From an uncultured Roseivirgaceae bacterium (GTDB taxonomy: Bacteria > Bacteroidota > Bacteroidia > Cytophagales > Cyclobacteriaceae), in NCBI GenBank assembly GCA_964437135.1, contig CAYTFO010000001.1, positions 1 through 53,798 on the forward strand: 53,798 nt of DNA, in the 5' to 3' direction. Position 1 is the first letter of the stretch; the number at the start of each line of letters is the position of its first letter. The position numbers and the translations under genes are program-made. Below the pieces are notes generated by a model. It did not search any database, was not told the DNA's origin, and worked only from the letters and a program-made list of their open reading frames with translations. Shown piece by piece: positions 3,550-19,113 of the stretch.

Positions 3550-6500
3550 TCAATGTTTCACCACTACCTTGTAAGTCATCACACTCTCACCACTCTTATC
3601 GTCCACAAACCTTAGTATGTAGATTCCTTCTTCCAGTTCCTGTGTTCTCACCTCAATTTCCTGATCAAATCCATTCTGCATTTCGATTTCCTTCACTATG
3701 GATCCGGACAAACTGAACATCTGCATCTGTACATTTTCAGAAATCAATTGCTTGTATTTCAATGTAAAGGATTCATCTGCAGGGTTTGGATATACCTGAA
3801 GATCAGTAAAGTATTCACGTATGATGCTTAGAACTAACTGAAGTTCAACACTAATACCCTCTTCAGTAACTGTCACATTCGCATCAAACTCAGTTTCTCT
3901 ACCTTCCTCGATTTCAAAGTCAATATTGGAAGTCTCATCCATTGGTACACCCGGATACTGAATATTGATTCTATAAAAACCCGGAGGAATATTTCCAAAG
4001 CTTACATTACCCTGATCATCCGTTTCCTTATATGCGACGAGTACATATTCATCATCATTCTGTCCAATACGTCCTCCCCCACCTGTGACACGTCTTCTTA
4101 AAGAACAACCAGCTTTTCTTACCCTTCTCCTTGCTTCAATACGTGCATCCTCTTCTGCAAAATCACTTTCCACTAACATGTCCAGCGTGCCAGGACCTTC
4201 CACAAAATCATCAGGTCGAAGAATCATGGTATAAGTACCTTCAGGAACTTCAAAATCACTTCTTACTTCAAGTGTATCAGCAAGTATCCAATCTTCAGTA
4301 TTTCCTACATAAGTGGGAACAAATTCTTCATTATTTAGGACTTCTGTTATACATACATAATTCCCGAGGATCAGATTTTCGACTCGGAATTCACCTGCTG
4401 TTACAGATACAGTTTGAACAGTATCATAAGGCTGTCCTTTAATGGTTTCAAAAGCTTGCATAGAACCTACAGTTAACCCAATATTGGTTCTTGGATCGAC
4501 AACTACTCCAAAAATATCTGCAGTAGCAAGTACCTCTATTGGCTCCGTAACGATCTCAAAATTAGGATCTATTGCTTCAGTTGCACTACTAGTTGCCGTT
4601 AGGGTATAATTACCCATATCTTCAAAATTAATTTCCGAGACACCATAAGTATCTGATGTAGCTCCTGCAATATTTGCCGGAAGTGTTTCAGCTCTGTAGG
4701 GTTGTAGTTTCCATTGATACTCCTCTGCACCTTCAATTGGTTCAGACAACTCAAAAGCGGTACCCTGTTCGATAACTACAGAGTTACTTGCTACTGATTT
4801 AGGATTCTGTGGATTGAAATCCAGTCCGGTTCTGGCTGCATTTGGATCCAGGTCATCAAACTCAAAATCATTATTGGTTATATCGAAAGAGGTCACGTTG
4901 GTAAGTGTTCCGGTAAAATTCGGTAATCCGGAAAGGTTATTATCCGAAAGGTCAATAGATGTAAGTCCTTCAACATCTGCTAATTCTATTGGAACATCTC
5001 CCGAAACTCCGGTATTTTCAAGATTCAATTCTGTAACCCTGTTATTCGCAATTGTTACTTCAGCCCAGTCAGCAATTGGAGTTGAGGTCCAATCCGAAAT
5101 ACTTGAAGAAGGATTCACAATGGCAGCATAAACGATTCTAAGAGATGCAGAATCCCTTTCCAATGAAGAGACGATGATATTTATTGGATCGGTAGTGATC
5201 GTAAGTTCAGGAGCAGAACTGTTAGTCACCTGTGCAATATACTCTGCCTCATCACTGAAGTCAGTGATTGGAATAGTAAATGAAGAGGTTGTTTCACCTA
5301 TCGCTGCTCCATCTCTTAACCAAACATAGGTTTCACCACCAGGAACTGTTCTATCGACTACATAGTCTGAACCTATCTGAACCAATTCTCTCAAAGGATC
5401 CAATGCAGGTTTTTGTGGAGAATAGGTAATATCATAACTTCCGGACAGTACTCCATCTGTTAGATCTGCAAAATCAAGTTCATTATCTGCAATATTGACA
5501 GTCGTTAGAACTGTTTTGCTTTCAATTCCTATTACCGTTTCAATTTTATTACTGCTTATATTCAAAGTAGTAAGGGAATCCAAACCATCTCCTGAAATAT
5601 CAAAATCTCCGGTAAGGCCATTGAGAGTCAAATTCAATGCAGTTACTGCGCCTCCGGTAACAGTGACCCCAAACCATGAGTCAAGATCTCCGCTTAACCA
5701 ACCTGAATTATTGGTCCATTCCCCTCCGCCATTTGCATTGTAAAGGGCAATTAACATGGTTGAATCAGACTCAAGCTGACTTTTTTCAACATTAATAGTT
5801 ACCACTTCTCCTGCTGAATTTTGTACACCGTCATTTACCAGAATAGTCAGGTCGTAGCTGGCAGCCGCCTGAAAATCGATCGCGCCAGTCGTTCTAATCT
5901 GTCCTGCAGTGTCAATAGAGAATGGAACCGGCTCAACAATTGAATAAGTATAGTCAGTGGCGGGTTCAGCATCTATGTCAGTGAAGGTAATGGGAGTACC
6001 AACCAAAGTTCCGATATCTGTGTTTTCCGGTACTTCAAACGGTCCGGCTGGATCTATAACCGGAGGATTATCATTGACAGGATTTATCGTGATATTAATT
6101 GCAATTCCTGTGATATTGATAGCTCCGTCTGTTAAAGAAAGTGTTGCCTGGTCTGTAAAATTCTCTGAATCATCATGAAAAAAGACGATCTCATTATTAT
6201 CAATATCAGCCTGACTAAAGCTTGAAATAGGTGTACCAGGATCACCAATATTTTCAAATTGACCGAAATCAGCGGCGGAAGTAACAGAGTAAATTAATTC
6301 TGTTGAATCGTTATCCGGATCGGTATAAAGCAACAAATCTGGGGTGATTACAAGGCTTTCACCTTCGTCCATAACCAACCCGGTATTATTTATCTCTTCC
6401 GGAGAATCATTTGCTGGATTTACTGTTATATTAAATGTTGAAGAGACAGCTGTATTTAATCCATCGGTAACATTAAAATTAAAACTATCGGATGTAGTTT

Positions 6501-9500
6501 CACTTCCATCATGTTGATAAAGCAAATTACCATTATTGATATCTAACTGTGTAAAACTTGTGACCGGAGTGACAAGATCCGGTGAGATAACAAGAATACC
6601 GTGAGCCGGAGCAGTTTGTACGTTGTAAGTGAGTGCACTTACCGGACTGTCGAAATCAGAATATTCAAGATTTGAAGTCTCTATCTCCAAAAGAAATCCT
6701 TCTGTAACAGTGATTCCAGTATTGGTCTGTTCAACCGGGGCTTCTTCATTCGCCAGAGTAACTGAAATGGTTGCTGTTTGTCCGGCTATAGAAGTGAAAC
6801 CGTCGGAAATTGCAAAATTAAAAGTATCCGAAGTTGTTCTGGAATCATCATGCCCATATTTTACTCTTCCGGTTTCTACATCTCCCTGTGTAAAGGACTG
6901 GCCAATATTTAACGGCACATCATCTAATAAAATATTTCCATTTACCGGAGTTGTTTCCAGGGTAAAAGTTCTAAACTCAGGAGGAGTATCTAAATCTACC
7001 GCAATTATATTGGAAGCACTGAGGGTGAGAGTATCCCCTTCACCGACAGTAAATGCACTATTCCCCAGGGATATTGGCTGCGTGTTGAAGGCAATTGAGT
7101 CCCTTTCTCCTATACCTTCATATGAGTTGGACATAAATACATCGATGTCTCCATCATTATCTATATCTACCGCAATGAGTTTATCAGTATAATTGGGTGT
7201 ACCAAATATCAAACCTGAATCAGAGAAAGTTCCGTTTCCGTCATTCAATAACAATTTGTGCTCCCCACTGTAAGCAGACAAAAACATATCAATATCACCA
7301 TCACCGTCCATATCTGCCAGTTCAATCTGATCAGGATAAGAACCCCCAAAGAAAGCAGCTGAGAATGTTTGCCCACCTTCTACAAAATTCCCGTTAGATT
7401 CATTGTAGAACATCACTTTTTCAGTGGTTACTACGTCCTGGAAGCCATCTCCATTGACATCAGCAATTTCCATGTCGAGATTGAATGATTCTGTTATTAG
7501 CTCTCCAATCTGGTTACCATAAGACCCGTATGCACTAGGCACGACATCAAACATTCTCACAAAATTTCCTGCAACAAATGCCAAATCTGTGTCGCCATCA
7601 TTGTCGAAATCGGTAGAACGCAAGGTTCTTATTGAATACCCGGAACTGTTTATAAAAGTACCACCATTCGAATATAAAAATCCTAAATCATTCACATAAG
7701 TAACGACACCCTGCGTACCAAACCTACTTCCACCTCCGAAGAAATCCAGATCACCATCACGATCAAAATCAACCCAGACATTAGAATACTTCGTTCCATT
7801 AGTAGTTATATTTTGTGCCAGAAAATCCACTCCATTATTGATAAATAATTCTGTAGTAGAATATTCATCTTTAGAGAGCAGAATATCCCCATCTCCATCC
7901 AAATCATAATCTGCAACGGCTATATCATAAATGGTATTAAAATTACCGTTCGCAAACAGCGTATCAACCGCAGTAAATTGATTGGGGCCATCATTATTAA
8001 TGACAAAAATATTGCTGTTATCTGAAGCAATTACATCTAAGTCTCCATCATTATCATAGTCGTAGAAATCTCCACCATCAAAATAAGTATCAACTCCTAG
8101 TCCAAAACCCTGAGTAAAGAATGTTCCCAATGAATTGAATGATGGGCTACCCTGAATATCAATCGTAAATACCTGTTGGAAAACATCTCCAAATTGATCA
8201 TAGGCTTCTACCTCAATCTGCATGGAACTTCCTGGAAACCTGTTCAGTTCCTGGTTGAGAATTAATCGGCCATCAGTAGTTGTTGTAAAGAATCCATTTT
8301 GCGGGCCATTCCCAGAGGAGTTGTCACTCATTCTGAAGAAAACATCATCCCCATCCGGTTCGGTAAAGGATAATGAGCCAACCTGAGTTCCTTTCATACT
8401 TAAATAGTTGACGGTATTATTATCCAGACTGACGGAACTAATAGGATTTTGATCTTCATTGAAGAAAATCATGTTTTCTGATGAGAAAGCGTATCTGAAA
8501 CTCACAAAAACATCAAGGTCACCATCTCCATCAAAATCTGCAGGTATTATTTCAGAAACTCTATACGACCTGGTGGGTAGGTCTATGACAAATTCAGGAG
8601 GTCCGAAATTACCATTCCCATCATTGGCATGTATAGTCAACAATTCTTCTTCTCCACCAGGCCCAAAATATTTATTTGACGCAAATAAATCAACATCCCC
8701 ATCTCCGTCATAGTCTCCTGCTGCTGTCCAATAGACATCGTCATAGGTAAATGGATTACCAAAATCGTAAAACCCAAGAGGCGCATCACCGTTTTTAAAC
8801 GTAGCATACCCTGAAGATTCATAGGTTCCCTGAGTCATATCCAGATCTCCGTCTCCATCAAAATCAAAAAAAGTAGTAGCTTCAGTATATCGAGTAGATA
8901 TTGTATCTGTAGGAGTTAGTGAAAATTTACTATTTGGATCTGATAATAAATAGCCATTATTACTGTACACGAAAACTGCTTCTCCATAACCTGAAAAATA
9001 ACCAGAAACAGCAACGTCAACATCTCCATCCTTATCAAAATCTCCAATCCCATCAATAAAATATATATTGTAGCTTGAAATTCCTACATAAACCTGAGGA
9101 ACCTGTACAAAATTCCGCGCACCATAATTAGCAAAAATTTGAATGGGATTACTAAATACAGGCTTAACCAGAATATCAAAATCTCCATCATTATCAAAGT
9201 CAGCGACCTTAACTCTGTCCCAATAAACTGATGATAGGTCACCACCTCCTTCATTACTGAATACTCCGCCTCCTTCATTAAAAAAGACCGGGTATTCATT
9301 ATTGAAAGAACCAGAGGTTCCAAAATTACCAGCAATGACGATATCTAAATTTCCGTCATTGTCCAAATCGACAATTTCAATTTCACTGGCATCATCGTAT
9401 CTGGAACCTGCAGCAAAATCATTTTTAGTTGGGAAAGTACCATCACCAAAATTGTAGTAAATAGTGAAAGCCGTGTCCTGAAGAACAACGATATCCAGAT

Positions 9501-10167
9501 CACCATCATTGTCCATATCTGCAACCTTGGCATCCTCGGAATCTCGTAGTTCAAATGGGGTAAAGTCAGGAACAAATTTCCGGGTAGGAAGCGCAGGTGC
9601 CTGGGGTAAACCAACAACTGTTACGGTTTCTGCTCCCAAAGAGTTCAGTGATGCATCCTGGAATTCAACGTTTAAAGTAGCACGTCCGTATTTCCACAAA
9701 TCATCAGCAACCACCAACTGGTCACCGTTCACAATGGTAAATAAAGCATTATCATTGGAGGCACTGTTTGTGAAAGTATAAGGGGCTCCGTTTCCACCGG
9801 TAATGGTTCCGATCACTGTACCTCGCTCAGCATAAGCATCAACAGTATTGTTGGTTATCGCCATTAGCTTTTCAGCAGATTCAGACTTTGCAGAATGAAA
9901 TCTTTCAAAAGTTTCAGCTTTTAGGCCTTTTGTTGCAAAAATTAGTAATGCTGAAACAGCAGGAATCGAATATTTTCGAAAACTGGAACATTCCGAATTA
10001 CCTAGTTTTTGCTCATATTTTTTAAGCCTGCTAAAAAGCATTCTTCTTTTTCTTCCGGAATATCTCCAGAAGTTGCCATTTAAGAGGCTTTTGTAAAGTC
10101 TTTTGTAAAGTTTTAAATAGGTATATTCCGATACCTTCTGAAATGAGGAAAGACCACTATTTTTCAT
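3550..10167 (-). CDS. Giant (2205 aa) adhesin-like T9SS cargo protein with FG-GAP/VCBS repeats, cadherin-like domains, LRR-like plus Ig-like modules, a CarboxypepD_reg-like domain and a T9SS C-terminal sorting domain
   Basis: Uninterrupted 6.6-kb ORF. It carries many calcium-binding-type D-x-D-x-DGD-x-D repeats (DMDNDGDLDIVV, VDLDNDGNLDIVIAG, ADFDGDGDLDVFVS, VDIDNDGDIDVFMS and others). Three repeats have the pattern L.Y.HDGSETTSDSF.F.V.DG. There is one cadherin-like NDNPPVI...ENT..GT segment. Two modules resemble LNL..NGLTGD and DLSDNNLSGLP. The C-terminus ends ...VYPNPADESFTLKY...GIYILRF....YKVVVKH. An alternative start is Met43 at 10041. Confidence 0.9.
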   Translation of the reverse strand: MKNSGLSSFQKVSEYTYLKLYKRLYKSLLNGNFWRYSGRKRRMLFSRLKKYEQKLGNSECSSFRKYSIPAVSALLIFATKGLKAETFERFHSAKSESAEKLMAITNNTVDAYAERGTVIGTITGGNGAPYTFTNSASNDNALFTIVNGDQLVVADDLWKYGRATLNVEFQDASLNSLGAETVTVVGLPQAPALPTRKFVPDFTPFELRDSEDAKVADMDNDGDLDIVVLQDTAFTIYYNFGDGTFPTKNDFAAGSRYDDASEIEIVDLDNDGNLDIVIAGNFGTSGSFNNEYPVFFNEGGGVFSNEGGGDLSSVYWDRVKVADFDNDGDFDILVKPVFSNPIQIFANYGARNFVQVPQVYVGISSYNIYFIDGIGDFDKDGDVDVAVSGYFSGYGEAVFVYSNNGYLLSDPNSKFSLTPTDTISTRYTEATTFFDFDGDGDLDMTQGTYESSGYATFKNGDAPLGFYDFGNPFTYDDVYWTAAGDYDGDGDVDLFASNKYFGPGGEEELLTIHANDGNGNFGPPEFVIDLPTRSYRVSEIIPADFDGDGDLDVFVSFRYAFSSENMIFFNEDQNPISSVSLDNNTVNYLSMKGTQVGSLSFTEPDGDDVFFRMSDNSSGNGPQNGFFTTTTDGRLILNQELNRFPGSSMQIEVEAYDQFGDVFQQVFTIDIQGSPSFNSLGTFFTQGFGLGVDTYFDGGDFYDYDNDGDLDVIASDNSNIFVINNDGPNQFTAVDTLFANGNFNTIYDIAVADYDLDGDGDILLSKDEYSTTELFINNGVDFLAQNITTNGTKYSNVWVDFDRDGDLDFFGGGSRFGTQGVVTYVNDLGFLYSNGGTFINSSGYSIRTLRSTDFDNDGDTDLAFVAGNFVRMFDVVPSAYGSYGNQIGELITESFNLDMEIADVNGDGFQDVVTTEKVMFYNESNGNFVEGGQTFSAAFFGGSYPDQIELADMDGDGDIDMFLSAYSGEHKLLLNDGNGTFSDSGLIFGTPNYTDKLIAVDIDNDGDIDVFMSNSYEGIGERDSIAFNTQPISLGNSAFTVGEGDTLTLSASNIIAVDLDTPPEFRTFTLETTPVNGNILLDDVPLNIGQSFTQGDVETGRVKYGHDDSRTTSDTFNFAISDGFTSIAGQTATISVTLANEEAPVEQTNTGITVTEGFLLEIETSNLEYSDFDSPVSALTYNVQTAPAHGILVISPDLVTPVTSFTQLDINNGNLLYQHDGSETTSDSFNFNVTDGLNTAVSSTFNITVNPANDSPEEINNTGLVMDEGESLVITPDLLLYTDPDNDSTELIYSVTSAADFGQFENIGDPGTPISSFSQADIDNNEIVFFHDDSENFTDQATLSLTDGAINITGIAINITINPVNDNPPVIDPAGPFEVPENTDIGTLVGTPITFTDIDAEPATDYTYSIVEPVPFSIDTAGQIRTTGAIDFQAAASYDLTILVNDGVQNSAGEVVTINVEKSQLESDSTMLIALYNANGGGEWTNNSGWLSGDLDSWFGVTVTGGAVTALNLTLNGLTGDFDISGDGLDSLTTLNISSNKIETVIGIESKTVLTTVNIADNELDFADLTDGVLSGSYDITYSPQKPALDPLRELVQIGSDYVVDRTVPGGETYVWLRDGAAIGETTSSFTIPITDFSDEAEYIAQVTNSSAPELTITTDPINIIVSSLERDSASLRIVYAAIVNPSSSISDWTSTPIADWAEVTIANNRVTELNLENTGVSGDVPIELADVEGLTSIDLSDNNLSGLPNFTGTLTNVTSFDITNNDFEFDDLDPNAARTGLDFNPQNPKSVASNSVVIEQGTAFELSEPIEGAEEYQWKLQPYRAETLPANIAGATSDTYGVSEINFEDMGNYTLTATSSATEAIDPNFEIVTEPIEVLATADIFGVVVDPRTNIGLTVGSMQAFETIKGQPYDTVQTVSVTAGEFRVENLILGNYVCITEVLNNEEFVPTYVGNTEDWILADTLEVRSDFEVPEGTYTMILRPDDFVEGPGTLDMLVESDFAEEDARIEARRRVRKAGCSLRRRVTGGGGRIGQNDDEYVLVAYKETDDQGNVSFGNIPPGFYRINIQYPGVPMDETSNIDFEIEEGRETEFDANVTVTEEGISVELQLVLSIIREYFTDLQVYPNPADESFTLKYKQLISENVQMQMFSLSGSIVKEIEMQNGFDQEIEVRTQELEEGIYILRFVDDKSGESVMTYKVVVKH
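3553..3815 (-). other. T9SS type A C-terminal sorting domain (CTD) of the giant protein
   Basis: The last ~85 aa match the classic Por-secretion tail pattern: VYPNPA..., then F.L.G..V, then GIYILR near the end. Confidence 0.75.
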
Positions 10168-10325
10168 GGTTCTAGATGGTTTGTTCTTGTTTCTGTTTGT
10201 CTGTGCTGGAAGGGTTGTATCAATCAGAAAAAAATAGACTACCTACAACATCTTAAAAATAATAATTTTTATTGCGAAATGGTATAAATTATTGACTTTT
10301 AACGTGAGATTATTTTTGAGGTTTT

Positions 10326-11069
10326 TTAATCGAGTACTTTTTTTCGATTGCTGAAAACATATTCAAACCGTGCCAGCTGTTGTTTTTCAGACAGACTATA
10401 CTGATACCCAAAATTATGATCATGATCATGCTGGCTCCGTCTGATACCCCGTATCCTGTTTTTTTCCAGTATATATTTTTCGCTCAGATATCTGTAATGT
10501 AATAATTTGATCCTGGGATCTTTCCAATACATCTTAACTATGCCCTCAGGGATAGCATAATGAGCTCCTGGTGAATAGTTGATATTTTCGATTTTATTGG
10601 GATCAAACAATACCATTTTATCATATTCAAAATTTCTGGCCCCCTCTTTTACCTGGTCAAATATGGGTAACCCATGTTGAGGTTCCTTTTTCGAAATCAT
10701 GTCAAACCCGATAGGACGCACTACGGAAAATTGGTTTTGCTTGAGATGATTTAAAAATAATACCGGATTTTTGATATATAGAAATTCATCAAAATCACAC
10801 ATAATTACAAAATCAGCTTTTCCCCTGCTGTTTTTCCACACAGTATTTCTTCTGGTGGTGAGTTCAGATTCCCGCATTTCATTTTCTGAGTCAAATTCCT
10901 TTCTAAAAACGTTTGGATATTTAACCAGTAAAGCAGCTGAATTATCTGTTGATTTGTTGTCCAAAACCACTATCTTATCCACCCATTTGAGATAATAATC
11001 CATAAAAAATGGAATTATGAATTCTTCATTGAAGCATAATGTATAAAGATGAACGATCGGTTTTTCCAT
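10326..11069 (-). CDS. Small GT2-like glycosyltransferase (Glyco_tranf_2_4-like)
   Basis: Begins MEKPIVHLYTLCFNEEFIIPFFMDYYLKWVDKIVVLDNKSTDNS, followed by a D-x-D-like CDFDEF motif. No signal peptide. The track extends to a GTG at 11150; ATG at 11069 fits the family N-terminus better. Confidence 0.65.
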   Translation of the reverse strand: MEKPIVHLYTLCFNEEFIIPFFMDYYLKWVDKIVVLDNKSTDNSAALLVKYPNVFRKEFDSENEMRESELTTRRNTVWKNSRGKADFVIMCDFDEFLYIKNPVLFLNHLKQNQFSVVRPIGFDMISKKEPQHGLPIFDQVKEGARNFEYDKMVLFDPNKIENINYSPGAHYAIPEGIVKMYWKDPRIKLLHYRYLSEKYILEKNRIRGIRRSQHDHDHNFGYQYSLSEKQQLARFEYVFSNRKKVLD

Positions 11070-11077
11070 AGAAAAAG

Positions 11078-12970
11078 ATGATTGATAATAAACTAGAAAA
11101 AGCAATTCAACTTCTTGAAAATAATGTTTTTGATCCGAATAACAAGTCACGAATCAAAGCATTATTCGATTTCCTTAGAAAATCACAGACATTCGAAAAG
11201 GAACTAACACTCATAAAGTCAGCAGATTCTGTGCAATATTACACCCGAGCTGCCAATTGCATTGCTTTCCTCTGGGATTCGGAAGAAGTGATCATCAATC
11301 GTGAGGAATATGTTCGACTAATTCCCTACGTGAACCAGATCAACTATATCTTTTTTCTGAGTGGCTTCGAAACTCCTGAAGTTTTGATCAACAGAATCCG
11401 TTCCAGAGCTATTAATAAACAAGGTAATCAATTGAATTTTGCTAATGAAAATCTTGCTCATAAATACCTTTTGTTGACAGGTCCGTTTTCTTCTCAACAC
11501 ACCCTTGATTTGTCCGAAATGTTCAAAAGACAACCCCATGGGGTCTTTAGTCTGCTACTGCAACATCTTTCTTTGCGATTATATGCCTTTGAAAAAGTAT
11601 TTAAAAATCAGCAGGAACTCATAAATGCCCTTAGCCAAACTGTTAATGTAAACCCTAATGTTAATAATGTTCTGAATATACATTTACTCTGGGCCATCAG
11701 TAGCTATTGGGATGAAGATTTAAATGTAAAGGTAAAAACCAGCCTCAATACTATTTTGGAAGATACATTTACTAAAGCAAAAGTTTCAACTGAACCTGTC
11801 AATAGACATATAAAGCTGGAGAAAAACACAAAGCCAAAGCTTATGATTGTGGCAGAAGCACTGAACAAAGAACATGTGATGTTTAGATGCTTTGGGCCCT
11901 CATTGATAAAGCTAAAAGAAAACTTTGAATTAATAGTTATAACCGCAAAAGAAGATTTGGGAGAAAAAGAATGGGATTGGGTAGATGACCTATATACATT
12001 TTCAGTGCGAGAATTTGCTTTAAACATTCAAAAAGACAGAATACAAAAAATTGCACCGGATATAATTCTGTATCCAAGCATTGGAATGAAATTATGGACG
12101 ATTCTGATGTCTCGTTTTAGGTTAGCGCCGTTGCAGATTTCCATGTTGGGTCATCCTGATTTTCATTATTCCAATAATATAGATTACCTCATAGGAGGCA
12201 AAGGTCTCTTTTCGGAAAAATATGCGAATGATGAAAACATCGTCCCTTTTTCAGGTTCAAGCGGAAGTCTTTTTGATATTTCCAATATTAACCTATTCAA
12301 TTCTCATAGCCCGGGCATAAAATCAGGGGATTCATTATCAGATAAAGAAAATTTTGAAGACCCTAATTCAAAAAAGCCGATTTCAGCATTGAAAGTGATC
12401 ATCTGTGCAAATATCTTCAAGTTCAATTATCATTTTGGTCAGGTACTTAAGAAAATAAAAGAACAAAGTGATTGTCCGTTTGAATTTCATATTTTACAAA
12501 ACCTCACTGGTTTGCATTTTCAGATTGGAAAAAAACAAATCAAAAGGATTTTGGGAGAAGAACGAGTTTTTGTCTATCCCAGATTAGTTTTTAGGGACTA
12601 TGTTTCACTTCTAAAGTCAGGGGATATTTATTTAAGCCCATTTCCATTTGGAGGTGAGAATAGCACACTTGATGCTTTATTGGCAGGACTTCCTGTTATT
12701 GCAAAGACTGGATCAACTCCCAGGGAATTGCTGGATTATCGGGTTTTAAAGCAAGCGGGACTTGAGATTGAATACTGTCATGAAACTGATGAACAATATA
12801 TCAACCATGCACTCCAGCTGATAAATTCACCTGAATTATTAGAAGCAGCTAAAAAGAAGATAAAGCCGGAGACCATTGCCCAAATATTTAAAAAAGAGAC
12901 GGAATCAAATGCGGGTGAACTAAATCAGGTGATTACTACTCTTTATCAGAAGCACTTAGAAAGGTCCTGA
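11078..12970 (+). CDS. TPR-less GT41-family glycosyltransferase, HMW1C/NGT-like (candidate cytoplasmic protein N-glycosyltransferase)
   Basis: 630 aa with no signal peptide. The N-terminal ~250 aa look helical. Block YPSIGMKLWTILMSRFRLAPLQISMLGHP....NIDYLI resembles the PSIGM..T......RLAPIQ...LGHP block of NGT/HMW1C as I recall it. Block SPFPFGGENSTLDALLAGLPVIAKTG...GL......T.DEY resembles NPFPFGNTNG..D....GL....KTG. The same blocks are shared more loosely with SPINDLY/OGT GT41 enzymes. Confidence 0.6.
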   Translation: MIDNKLEKAIQLLENNVFDPNNKSRIKALFDFLRKSQTFEKELTLIKSADSVQYYTRAANCIAFLWDSEEVIINREEYVRLIPYVNQINYIFFLSGFETPEVLINRIRSRAINKQGNQLNFANENLAHKYLLLTGPFSSQHTLDLSEMFKRQPHGVFSLLLQHLSLRLYAFEKVFKNQQELINALSQTVNVNPNVNNVLNIHLLWAISSYWDEDLNVKVKTSLNTILEDTFTKAKVSTEPVNRHIKLEKNTKPKLMIVAEALNKEHVMFRCFGPSLIKLKENFELIVITAKEDLGEKEWDWVDDLYTFSVREFALNIQKDRIQKIAPDIILYPSIGMKLWTILMSRFRLAPLQISMLGHPDFHYSNNIDYLIGGKGLFSEKYANDENIVPFSGSSGSLFDISNINLFNSHSPGIKSGDSLSDKENFEDPNSKKPISALKVIICANIFKFNYHFGQVLKKIKEQSDCPFEFHILQNLTGLHFQIGKKQIKRILGEERVFVYPRLVFRDYVSLLKSGDIYLSPFPFGGENSTLDALLAGLPVIAKTGSTPRELLDYRVLKQAGLEIEYCHETDEQYINHALQLINSPELLEAAKKKIKPETIAQIFKKETESNAGELNQVITTLYQKHLERS

Positions 12971-17805: not shown

Positions 17806-19113
17806 TTATTCGTTCCAGATTTCTATTTCGCCTTTATCAAACTTTGATTTTTTTACTTTTTTCTTAACAGCTTCTGGTTGAACATTGTTCCCGTAAATAT
17901 TATTCCATGTAACATTCCATTTTCGCATGGCTTCTTTAGTGAATCTGGAATTGGCATTTCTGGCAGAAACAACCTTTACACTAGGATGCATATCTGAACT
18001 TTTCTTATGAACCATTTTTATGGGTCCAGTGTATGTTTCTTCTGTATTACTGGTAGGTCTGCCCCATTTAATGTAAAACCTTTTGAAACTAAATCCTGAA
18101 TTGATGGTATATCTGGGAATTACCTTGTATTTATCGTCAAATGGCATTTCACCTTTTGTGGTTTTAGGCTTGTAGGTATATAGATATCTCGGGAAGGTAG
18201 TTTCTTCACTAAACTTACCTGACATTTTCTGTTTTTTATTGGGCCACATCGGTCCGGAAATCGATTTTGGTGCAGCCGCAATCCTTCCACCGGTAAATTC
18301 CTTAGGTCTTGAATACCTGGGAGCTACATCATATTTTTGATTTTTGAATGGAGAACCTTCGCTATATCTTGGGTTCACCGCCCATTTTCTGCTACCAAAA
18401 GGATTATTTGCAGAAAGATTGGTGGGAGCCCTCATATCTTTTCGGGTAAATGGCTTTTTCTCTATTGATTTGGGCGCAGCCGCAATCTTTCCACCGGTAA
18501 ATTCCTTAGGTCTTGAATACCTGGGAGCTACATCATATCGCTTATTTTTAAAAGGTGACCCCTTAGAATAACGCGGATTAACTGCCCATCGGCTGCTTCC
18601 CATAAATGGAGAATCTGCGGTTACAGGAGTCCAGCCTTTATGATATTTTGGTTTTCTAAATGGTATGGGTGGGCTTCTTCTTTGTTTGGCAACATACTTA
18701 CTCGTATTGCTCCCCTGGAATGGATTTGGTGGAGATTGATATCGCTCCGGCCTGCCGATTCTCTTATTGCTATACGGACTCCCAATAGAATACCTTGCAA
18801 TCCCTCTTGCTTTACTAAATCCTAATGGTGATCCTTTGCTTTGCATTGTTGCCGGCTTACTTCGCCTGTCGAAAATCGGTCTTGGTGAAACAGAACTATA
18901 TCGCTGTTCGTTTTTTTTGTTTTTAAATGGATGTGAATGATCCTGTGAAAAAGCCTGCTTTCGTCTTCTTTTAGCTTCTGCCTTGGTTTCACGTGGTTGT
19001 TGTGTTTTTAACCTTGTGTCACTATCCGGGATCAATTGAGCATACCCTTCCTGCGAAAACATTACGAGTGCAATGAAAAATATCAGGATTCTTATGGTAG
19101 CAGAAAATTTCAA
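17806..19113 (-). CDS. Secreted, highly basic repeat protein (RYS-x-GSP-F/Y-x-NK repeats), function unknown
   Basis: 435 aa with a signal peptide (ILIFFIALVMFSQEGYAQ), very Lys/Arg/Pro-rich. The motif PRYS.GSPFKN..YDVAPRYSRPKEFTGG.IAAAPKSI occurs twice as a 68-aa tandem unit, plus degenerate copies. Its stop abuts the ytxJ start. Confidence 0.6.
   Translation of the reverse strand: MKFSATIRILIFFIALVMFSQEGYAQLIPDSDTRLKTQQPRETKAEAKRRRKQAFSQDHSHPFKNKKNEQRYSSVSPRPIFDRRSKPATMQSKGSPLGFSKARGIARYSIGSPYSNKRIGRPERYQSPPNPFQGSNTSKYVAKQRRSPPIPFRKPKYHKGWTPVTADSPFMGSSRWAVNPRYSKGSPFKNKRYDVAPRYSRPKEFTGGKIAAAPKSIEKKPFTRKDMRAPTNLSANNPFGSRKWAVNPRYSEGSPFKNQKYDVAPRYSRPKEFTGGRIAAAPKSISGPMWPNKKQKMSGKFSEETTFPRYLYTYKPKTTKGEMPFDDKYKVIPRYTINSGFSFKRFYIKWGRPTSNTEETYTGPIKMVHKKSSDMHPSVKVVSARNANSRFTKEAMRKWNVTWNNIYGNNVQPEAVKKKVKKSKFDKGEIEIWNE
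18272..18334. repeat. 63-nt intragenic direct repeat, copy A
   Basis: 62 of 63 positions are identical to 18476..18538. The offset is 204 nt, or 68 codons. Flanking sequence is clearly more diverged. Confidence 0.9.
18476..18538. repeat. 63-nt intragenic direct repeat, copy B
   Basis: See copy A. The single mismatch is C/T at repeat position 13. Confidence 0.9.

Follow-up and report, generated by a model that had tools for sequence, protein, structure and literature searches.

A candidate cytoplasmic protein-glycosylation module linked to a giant type IX secretion cargo in Cytophagales

The glycosyltransferases HMW1C and EtpC modify an adhesin encoded next to them, in the cytoplasm and before its export by the Sec pathway (PMC5303269). 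ApNGT of Actinobacillus pleuropneumoniae is paired with an alpha-1,6-glucosyltransferase in a two-enzyme operon and is, like the enzymes of Kingella and Aggregatibacter, one of the 'orphans' that are not encoded beside their substrate (PMC5303269). HmwC of Yersinia pestis shares 41% identity with HMW1C and is reported to be a transferase of O-linked N-acetylglucosamine (O-GlcNAc) that acts on many proteins (PMC11329713). HMW1C-type cytoplasmic glycosylation has so far been documented only in Proteobacteria, on type V adhesins and, in one report, on cytoplasmic proteins, and the cargo of Bacteroidota's type IX secretion system (T9SS) is so far known to be glycosylated only after export. N-glycosylation systems of bacteria had been considered peculiar to Proteobacteria and Campylobacterota, and a review of T9SS glycosylation covers only periplasmic N- and O-glycosylation of proteins with a T9SS C-terminal domain (CTD), in Cytophaga hutchinsonii (PMC11611037). 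The literature searched contains no HMW1C-like enzyme linked to the T9SS or to Bacteroidota. Here we analyze a locus in a 53,798-nucleotide stretch of DNA (the window; contig CAYTFO010000001.1, assembly GCA_964437135.1) from an uncultured Roseivirgaceae bacterium, in which a 630-residue HMW1C-like enzyme of glycosyltransferase family GT41 is encoded next to a 247-residue GT-A (GT2-like) glycosyltransferase and a 2205-residue T9SS cargo protein, referred to as the giant. On balance, the region is probably a dedicated cytoplasmic protein-glycosylation module for this giant surface protein.

The module follows a known logic, that of a GT41 gene beside an adhesin gene; what is new is the phylum, the secretion route, the partner enzyme, the remodelled acceptor site and the leader of the cargo. 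As in the hmw1ABC and etpBAC loci, the enzyme is encoded beside a very large surface adhesin with predicted export by Sec. It resembles HMW1C, ApNGT and AaNGT, from Pasteurellaceae and their relatives, in its all-alpha N-terminal domain followed by a GT-B half, in its lack of tetratricopeptide repeats (TPRs), in homology over the full length, in its predicted cytoplasmic location, and in the shared core of residues for catalysis and for the binding of uridine diphosphate (UDP), namely K, N, D, H, R, G-H and Y. It differs from them in an identity of about 23%, in a score below the equivalog cutoff, and at the positions of D215, S278, T438 and H495, and the system as a whole differs in belonging to Bacteroidota rather than Proteobacteria, in a putative substrate that travels by the T9SS rather than by type V secretion, and in the GT-A partner. 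The pairing of a GT41 initiator gene with a second soluble glycosyltransferase is reminiscent of ngt-agt of A. pleuropneumoniae (PMC5303269). However, the ngt-agt genes are co-transcribed, whereas those of the window are divergent, the second enzyme is a PF13704 GT-A protein present in one to three tandem copies in related loci, and the adhesin gene, distant in A. pleuropneumoniae, is adjacent here. Unlike the module, Y. pestis HmwC is reported to have many cytoplasmic targets, and no dedicated giant cargo is linked to it. The presumed substrate is, as in known T9SS-cargo glycosylation, a CTD-bearing surface protein of Bacteroidota/Cytophagales (PMC11611037), but the known modifications take place in the periplasm or at the surface and involve lipid-linked or complex glycans, including the general O-glycosylation in the periplasm of Bacteroidota and anchoring by anionic lipopolysaccharide (A-LPS) linked to the CTD. 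The window module would, in contrast, be soluble, cytoplasmic, dependent on nucleotide sugars, and gene-linked to one class of cargo.

In the favored reading, the pre-protein of the giant would be synthesized in the cytoplasm and carry a basic leader of unusual length, and the HMW1C-like enzyme would put single sugars derived from UDP-sugars on side chains of the unfolded giant, before or during Sec export. The GT-A enzyme, which has up to three tandem paralogues elsewhere, would extend these sugars or modify further sites. The glycosylated giant would then cross the inner membrane by Sec, lose its leader and fold, and the T9SS would recognize its C-terminal domain and bring it to the cell surface. 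We infer the giant to be the acceptor, and likewise the order in which the enzymes act and whatever part the leader, or a DUF4915 protein encoded in most related loci, may play.

The two glycosyltransferases

The 630-residue protein matches the NCBIfam model NF049992 (NGTferase), named UDP-glucose:protein N-beta-glucosyltransferase, over residues 47-610 with an E-value of 8e-52. Its best phmmer matches in the PDB are ApNGT (8j30/3q3e, 5e-32) and AaNGT (8p0o/q, 6e-31), whereas SPINDLY and the O-GlcNAc transferases (OGTs) XcOGT and TtOGT match no better than at 1e-3 to 1e-2, with the C-terminal lobe alone. Two sequence blocks singled out in the original prediction, which was made from the letters of the window only, are present and align by HMMER with PSIGMDMTTIFASNTRLAPIQAIALGHP and NPFPFGNTNGIIDMVTLGL..KTG of ApNGT, in agreement with the PSIGM...RLAPIQ...LGHP and NPFPFGNTNG...D...KTG stretches proposed there. 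Pfam detects no TPR in the protein and gives a weak match to HMW1C_N. Neither a signal peptide nor a hydrophobic segment was found in the GT41 or the GT-A enzyme, and both are predicted to be cytoplasmic and soluble.

The structure of the GT41 enzyme, predicted by AlphaFold2 from an alignment of 20 relatives, has a mean predicted local distance difference test (pLDDT) score of 87.9 and a predicted template modelling (pTM) score of 0.88. The model can be divided into an all-alpha N-terminal domain (approximately residues 1-233) and a GT-B half with two Rossmann-like parts. In a Foldseek search of the PDB, ten AaNGT and ApNGT chains rank first with E-values of 1e-29 to 1e-26; the template modelling (TM) scores to AaNGT and ApNGT (8p0q/3q3e) are 0.77-0.81 over approximately 650 columns, whereas those to OGT, SPY and XcOGT are only 0.48-0.58. 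By sequence and predicted fold, the protein is assigned to the TPR-less, HMW1C-like branch of GT41 and not to the OGT/SPINDLY branch. The original prediction of a protein with no signal peptide and no TPRs, in which a helical domain precedes a GT-B half, agrees with the Pfam, hydrophobicity and AlphaFold2 results, and its placement of the protein on the HMW1C side of the family holds in sequence and in fold.

Residues of the active site were mapped by a pairwise HMMER alignment and a 138-sequence MAFFT alignment, with roles taken from PMC10507012 and PMC10466321. The UDP-binding residues K441, N521, D525 and Y501 of ApNGT are retained in the window enzyme as K448, N528, D532 and Y508, those that bind UDP and sugar (H277 and R281) as H266 and R270, and the G370-H371 pair, which contacts sugar and peptide, as G358-H359. 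Y222 and H371, which bracket the acceptor Asn, correspond to Y210 and H359, and the peptide-binding residues R177 and H214 to R167 and H202. The residues for UDP binding, catalysis and the bracketing of the acceptor Asn are near-invariant across the 138 family members. The window enzyme looks catalytically competent, with this UDP-binding and catalytic core conserved.

The 247-residue protein matches PF13704 (Glyco_tranf_2_4) with an E-value of 9e-15 and 55.4 bits against a cutoff of 27.5, and contains DNKSTDNS as its nucleotide-binding motif and CDFDE as its DxD motif. The corresponding patterns, DNxSxDxS and (C)DxDE, are kept in eight of nine GT-A orthologues and paralogues, and the protein is accordingly predicted to be a GT-A (GT2-like) glycosyltransferase. 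The best solved relative of a nine-sequence GT-A profile is GmaR, the flagellin O-GlcNAc transferase of Listeria (PMC9638930), with a weak match (E=1.4e-4) that covers mainly the generic nucleotide-binding region. A role of the GT-A enzyme in glycan extension is suggested by analogy only.

Recurrence of the three genes in related genomes

An exhaustive HMMER search of 1.84 billion representatives identified 218 clusters of the GT41 family at E<=1e-30, of which only about five are near 40% identity. A word-indexed search found one close homologue only, and a profile search added none. In a scan of genomes, the closest loci all belong to metagenome-assembled genomes of Cytophagales (Cyclobacteriaceae, Roseivirgaceae), and the only name recovered from a source for a Cytophagales homologue is 'hypothetical protein'. 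The next-closest loci are from Planctomycetota, then from Beggiatoaceae and other Proteobacteria.

The module is present in every Cytophagales locus examined, seven beside the window and eight in total. It is rare, with eight loci in the collections searched, and is known to date from a handful of Cyclobacteriaceae/Roseivirgaceae-like genomes. In each of the seven related loci (L002/L004, L003, L005, L006, L007, L010 and L046), one to three GT-A genes in tandem are oriented divergently to the GT41 gene, and in L002, L003, L005, L010 and L046 the layout is tight, as in the window, from overlapping to 19 nt apart. All six loci that extend far enough have, downstream of the GT-A genes and on their strand, a leader-bearing giant with FG-GAP, Cadherin_3 and LRR domains, and a T9SS C-terminal domain is seen wherever the C-terminus of the giant is on the contig (L002, L005 and L046). 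The GT-A orthologues are 46-53% identical to the window gene product, and the GT41 proteins only 28-41%. When 13 window genes were tested, only the giant, GT-A and GT41 genes had homologues in L002, L003, L005, L006, L007 and L010, and the same was found for L046. The conservation of the trio, while the flanks differ and the GT41 proteins have diverged to 28-41% identity, argues that the gene linkage reflects functional coupling. The linkage of a GT41, a GT2-like and a giant CTD-protein gene, which the original prediction had suggested checking, recurs in seven other Cytophagales loci with unrelated flanks.

A gene for a DUF4915/TIGR03032 protein lies between the GT-A gene or genes and the giant in L002, L003, L005, L006 and L007, and just downstream of the GT41 gene in L010. 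The DUF4915 proteins are 57-86% identical among the six loci and thus better conserved than the GT41 gene. The distance from the DUF4915 gene to the start of the giant is 6-12 nt in four loci, which is operon-like. The gene is absent from the window and L046, which represent a minimal three-gene form. DUF4915 has no solved relative by sequence, and no literature on it was found. In L046, there is a second leader-bearing giant with a CTD on the opposite side of the enzyme pair. Just upstream of where its start is called, the leader is encoded in a reading segment of its own; a frameshift, an assembly error or a wrongly called start could explain the split. In L006, L007 and L009, the last a Pirellulaceae locus, the GT41 gene has directly upstream of it a gene for a 2OG-Fe(II) oxygenase (PF13759/TIGR02466-like), a hint of hydroxylation as a coupled step in some forms of the system.

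The giant cargo, its leader and the surrounding genes

The giant contains FG-GAP/VCBS repeats (ten of FG-GAP_3), three Cadherin_3 domains, one cadherin domain, and LRR and Ig-like regions, as identified with Pfam and NCBIfam. Its C-terminal domain matches PF18962 (Por_Secre_tail; E=9e-10, 39.1 bits, cutoff 27) and TIGR04183 (E=8.5e-8, 32.1 bits, cutoff 23). With this sorting domain and a predicted N-terminal Sec signal, the giant is classified from its sequence as a T9SS type A cargo. The C-terminal part of the giant, with LRR and Ig-like domains and the CTD, is approximately 40% identical to CTD proteins of other loci (in L002, L005 and L046), which are either separate proteins or C-terminal parts of other giants. 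This identity indicates domain shuffling among these T9SS cargo genes.

The N-terminus of the giant is formed by a leader of about 66 residues that is common to all seven giants (window, L002, L003, L005, L006, L007 and L046). In the window, leader residues 1-66 are strongly basic, with 17 Lys and Arg against 3 Asp and Glu, and a net charge of about +14. The invariant positions include Y17, K19, Y21, R23, L24, K26, G31, F33, W34, R35, K40, R41, M43, L44, F45, R47 and L48. The leader is followed by the hydrophobic core IPAVSALLIFAT (residues 68-79), which has the size of a signal peptide rather than of a transmembrane segment, and by a predicted A-x-A-like cleavage site (LKA before E) at about residue 84. 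A wrongly annotated start of the giant was considered and rejected, because the leader protein sequence is conserved upstream of the internal Met43. Six leaders compared with Pfam and NCBIfam gave no match at E<=10, so that the ESPR and KxYKxGKxW profiles are also unmatched; a word-indexed search with the leader returned zero matches, not even the giant itself, and a scan of JGI metagenomes with a leader profile found only L044, which is the reverse complement of L003. The leader has so far been found only on giants that adjoin a GT41/GT-A pair. Long conserved signal extensions are known from the 68-residue signal of HMW1, the ESPR of type V proteins and the KxYKxGKxW signals of Gram-positive serine-rich adhesins, the last of which are glycosylated in the cytoplasm. 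By analogy, the leader resembles these signals as a long, basic, conserved extension before an ordinary core, with no sequence kinship detected, and it may represent a novel type of signal for export or modification.

The three open reading frames of the window have the positions given in the original prediction, together with their 8-nt and 158-nt spacings (Table 1). Because the starts of the GT-A and GT41 genes are so close, the promoter of each must lie within the coding sequence of the other. A longer GT-A reading frame (10326-11150), begun with GTG at 11150, would share 73 nt with the GT41 gene, but the ATG at 11069 is favored by the N-termini of the orthologues, MEKPIVHLYT and MQKPVVHLYT. 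The gap between the GT-A gene and the giant contains neither a terminator-like hairpin nor a minus-strand TAnnTTTG, as had been noted before; however, the motif is not enriched in the window, and its absence from the gap therefore carries little weight. A scan for sigma-70 promoters gave matches at chance level, and the sigma-70 consensus is uninformative for Bacteroidota. Rfam has zero matches in the whole window.

The annotated genes that flank the module have housekeeping functions, have no function assigned, or are without a family match. The remaining part of the window is ordinary housekeeping, and includes genes for L-lactate dehydrogenase, lipoyl synthase, an E1 dehydrogenase, an ABC transporter, iPGM, a SurA-like peptidyl-prolyl isomerase (PPIase), CorC and a citrate-type transporter. 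The family scan of the flanking genes found no polysaccharide or lipopolysaccharide (LPS) biosynthesis genes around the module, and no flippase, polymerase, lipid-carrier or sugar-nucleotide genes among those scanned in the window. The region was therefore rejected as a polysaccharide or LPS locus, and it was also rejected as a mobile element or island, since its flanks are housekeeping genes and its GC content is only slightly lower.

Table 1. Positions of the features of the window and of related loci
Feature	Sequence	Coordinates	Strand	Remark
Giant T9SS cargo gene	window	3550..10167	(-)	2205 aa
T9SS type A C-terminal sorting domain and stop codon	window	3550..3795	(-)	aa 2125-2205
LRR/Ig-like/CTD part of the giant	window	3550-5760		aa 1468-2205, ~740 aa
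Extended leader of the giant	window	9916..10167	(-)	conserved N-terminal segment
Gap from GT-A gene stop to giant ATG	window	10168..10325	(.)	158 nt
GT2-like / GT-A gene	window	10326..11069	(-)	247 aa, ATG start
Spacer between divergent ATGs	window	11070..11077	(.)	8 nt
HMW1C-like GT41 gene	window	11078..12970	(+)	630 aa
Housekeeping genes	window	14110-53798
DUF4915/TIGR03032	L002	7054-8175
DUF4915/TIGR03032	L003	3423-4535
DUF4915/TIGR03032	L005	7944-9068
DUF4915/TIGR03032	L006	6418-7557
DUF4915/TIGR03032	L007	5796-6935
DUF4915/TIGR03032	L010	2160-3266
Counterpart of the C-terminal part of the giant	L002	17361-20477		1038 aa
Counterpart of the C-terminal part of the giant	L005	181-2529
Counterpart of the C-terminal part of the giant	L046	19483-21759
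Second leader-bearing giant	L046	11834-18976
Leader-coding segment of second giant	L046	18976-18719		called start at 18718
2OG-Fe(II) oxygenase	L006	9188-9565		not in window
2OG-Fe(II) oxygenase	L007	9311-9991		not in window
2OG-Fe(II) oxygenase	L009	9074-9742		not in window
Protein with N-terminal extension	L008	4359-6782		807 aa, Phycisphaeraceae
HMW1C-like gene beside flagellin and FliD	L039	5506-11845		Vreelandella utahensis

Acceptor site, linkage chemistry and alternative readings

Several properties of the enzyme, the cargo and the sampled loci weigh against the favored reading or, more narrowly, against N-x-S/T chemistry. The window enzyme is only about 23% identical to ApNGT, and its NF049992 score of 176.6 bits fails the 1000-bit cutoff for equivalogs of the N-glycosyltransferases (NGTs); a relative from Vreelandella, encoded next to flagellin, scores similarly (195 bits). 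D215 of ApNGT hydrogen-bonds the Ser or Thr at position +2, is conserved in ten active NGTs, and its exchange for Ala inactivates AaNGT (PMC10466321, PMC10507012). In ApNGT, bulky substitutions of D215, including Leu, severely reduce activity and stringency (PMC10466321). The window enzyme has L203 at this position, with the local sequence HLLW; the NGT motif is DVYM. The mapping is secure because it runs without a gap from position 215 to Y222, itself near-invariant, and comes out alike in the pairwise and the multiple alignment. Leu or His occupies the position in all five closest clade members, and the closest relatives share the signature R/H/(L or H)/L/W together with Asn at the position of ApNGT T438. 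The R177/D215 dyad is kept in just 2 of the 137 nearest cluster representatives. The window enzyme thus lacks, by alignment, a defining feature of N-x-S/T-specific NGTs, and if it is directed to Asn, its site motif is probably other than N-x-S/T. Furthermore, S278 of ApNGT is replaced by Val, H495 by Arg and T438 by Asn (Asn445), and the donor sugar may therefore differ. All the linked loci come from a single order, Cytophagales, so that inheritance, and not selection, could account for part of the synteny.

The sequence of the cargo adds to these points. The window giant contains 27 N-x-S/T motifs, and shuffles that preserve its composition give 26.0 +/- 4.5 (z=0.2). The reverse motif is commoner, with 33 occurrences. 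N-x-S/T is not enriched in the giant nor in its five orthologues, although sequon enrichment is not strictly required for NGT membership. When every residue at +2 was scanned in the six giants, the only enrichment was for N-x-G, which is attributable to the calcium-binding loops of FG-GAP repeats. By these counts, the cargo sequence supports no particular Asn site motif, and the sequons of the giant are no commoner than expected by chance, in line with the warning in the original prediction that they might arise by chance.

The wider family is also diverse in its surroundings, and members with other substrates or neighbors are a further point on the same side. More distant HMW1C-like genes (L013, L015-L020, L017 and L022) lie directly downstream of a DegT-family aminotransferase gene in Beggiatoaceae, Kuenenia and other Planctomycetota, and that of Vreelandella utahensis adjoins the genes for flagellin and FliD, which suggests that the family includes enzymes with other substrates and with amino sugars as donors. 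Others of the distant relatives adjoin a second GT41 gene. Two proteins, P0023 (1736 aa) and P0030 (2762 aa), match the query in four and seven separate stretches, respectively, and may contain several tandem GT41 domains, and a Phycisphaeraceae protein (in L008) has an N-terminal extension of approximately 190 residues before HMW1C_N. HmwC, too, departs from N-x-S/T hexosylation, which means that the chemistry of family members is not readable from homology alone. At such a distance, the linkage type and the donor sugar cannot be inferred by homology. Of the original prediction, an HMW1C-like GT41 enzyme, a cytoplasmic location of the enzymes and a conserved gene linkage stand, whereas its specific chemistry, hexose on Asn in N-x-S/T, is not supported, given L203 in place of D215, the score of 177 against 1000 bits, the lack of sequon enrichment and the O-GlcNAc-transferring relative. 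The statement that such enzymes are usually encoded next to their adhesin substrate was too broad, given the orphan enzymes of A. pleuropneumoniae, Kingella and Aggregatibacter (PMC5303269).

The specific form in which the window enzyme is a canonical NGT, placing glucose or galactose on Asn in the N-x-S/T sites of the giant for extension by the GT2-like enzyme in the manner of alpha6GlcT of A. pleuropneumoniae, draws on the full-length homology and fold match to ApNGT and AaNGT, on R167 and H202 and the acceptor-Asn flankers Y210 and H359 matching their ApNGT counterparts (PMC10466321), and on the 27 sequons. The same form has to accommodate Leu or His across the clade in place of an Asp conserved in ten active NGTs, whose exchange for Ala abolishes activity in AaNGT (PMC10466321, PMC10507012), as well as the score far below the equivalog cutoff, sequons at chance level that are outnumbered by the reverse motif, and a PF13704 enzyme as the putative counterpart of Agt, and we regard it as rather unlikely. 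The enzyme could instead be an O-glycosyltransferase, for example of O-GlcNAc onto Ser or Thr, that acts on the giant or on many cytoplasmic targets, the giant then not being its sole or main target. HmwC, which has the same all-alpha domain (AAD) and GT-B architecture, is reported to transfer from UDP-GlcNAc to Ser of multiple proteins, and Asn445 lies at the T438 position, where the equivalent Asn of XcOGT contacts the alpha-phosphate (PMC11329713). That GmaR is the solved protein closest to the GT-A partner also points this way (PMC9638930), but that match is weak and mostly in the generic nucleotide-binding region. The tight, conserved linkage to one class of giants argues for a dedicated target, and in both phmmer and Foldseek comparisons the window enzyme is no nearer to OGTs than canonical NGTs are; O-glycosylation of this kind is likewise a rather unlikely explanation.

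It is also conceivable that the acceptor is not a protein but a glycolipid, a surface polysaccharide or a small molecule, and that the enzymes are linked to the giant by co-regulation only, for example in building a ligand or an anchor for it. PF13704 GT-A enzymes are functionally diverse, and distant GT41 relatives are found among sugar-nucleotide genes (DegT aminotransferase, acetyltransferase-like). All characterized HMW1C-like enzymes, however, modify proteins (PMC5303269, PMC10507012, PMC11329713), the window enzyme keeps R167 and H202 of the peptide groove, and the scanned flanks in the window lack flippase, polymerase, lipid-carrier and sugar-nucleotide genes, which makes a non-protein acceptor improbable. 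That the adjacency of the genes is meaningless, being due to chance or to synteny inherited among close relatives, would be compatible with the origin of all the loci from metagenome-assembled genomes of Cytophagales and with the close mutual relationship of L006 and L007. It is very hard to reconcile with GT41 proteins diverged to 28-41% identity, with flanks that are wholly different and share only the three module genes, with the operon-like spacing of DUF4915 gene and giant in four loci, and with the second leader-bearing giant across the enzyme pair in L046, and we give this explanation hardly any credence.

A dedicated cytoplasmic glycosylation module for the giant remains the favored reading. 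ApNGT engineered at D215 is in use for the glycosylation of non-canonical sequons (PMC10466321), and an enzyme in which Leu naturally takes the place of D215 may offer a new specificity for glycoengineering. Tentatively, the module may belong to a previously unrecognized pathway dedicated to giant T9SS adhesins, in which three parts would act together: an HMW1C-like enzyme whose remodelled groove, with Leu for the Ser/Thr-reading Asp, would read a motif different from N-x-S/T; GT-A enzymes, one to three in number, that would build a short glycan; and the 66-residue basic leader, which, with DUF4915/TIGR03032 in most loci, would hold or present the unfolded pre-protein for glycosylation in the cytoplasm, ahead of its export by Sec and the T9SS. 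If true, such a pathway would give Bacteroidota a counterpart to the HMW1 and serine-rich-adhesin systems, of independent origin. The favored reading, if true, would take a cytoplasmic glycosylation mechanism into a phylum and a secretion route that are both new to it, and would provide a defined, testable enzyme-substrate pair.

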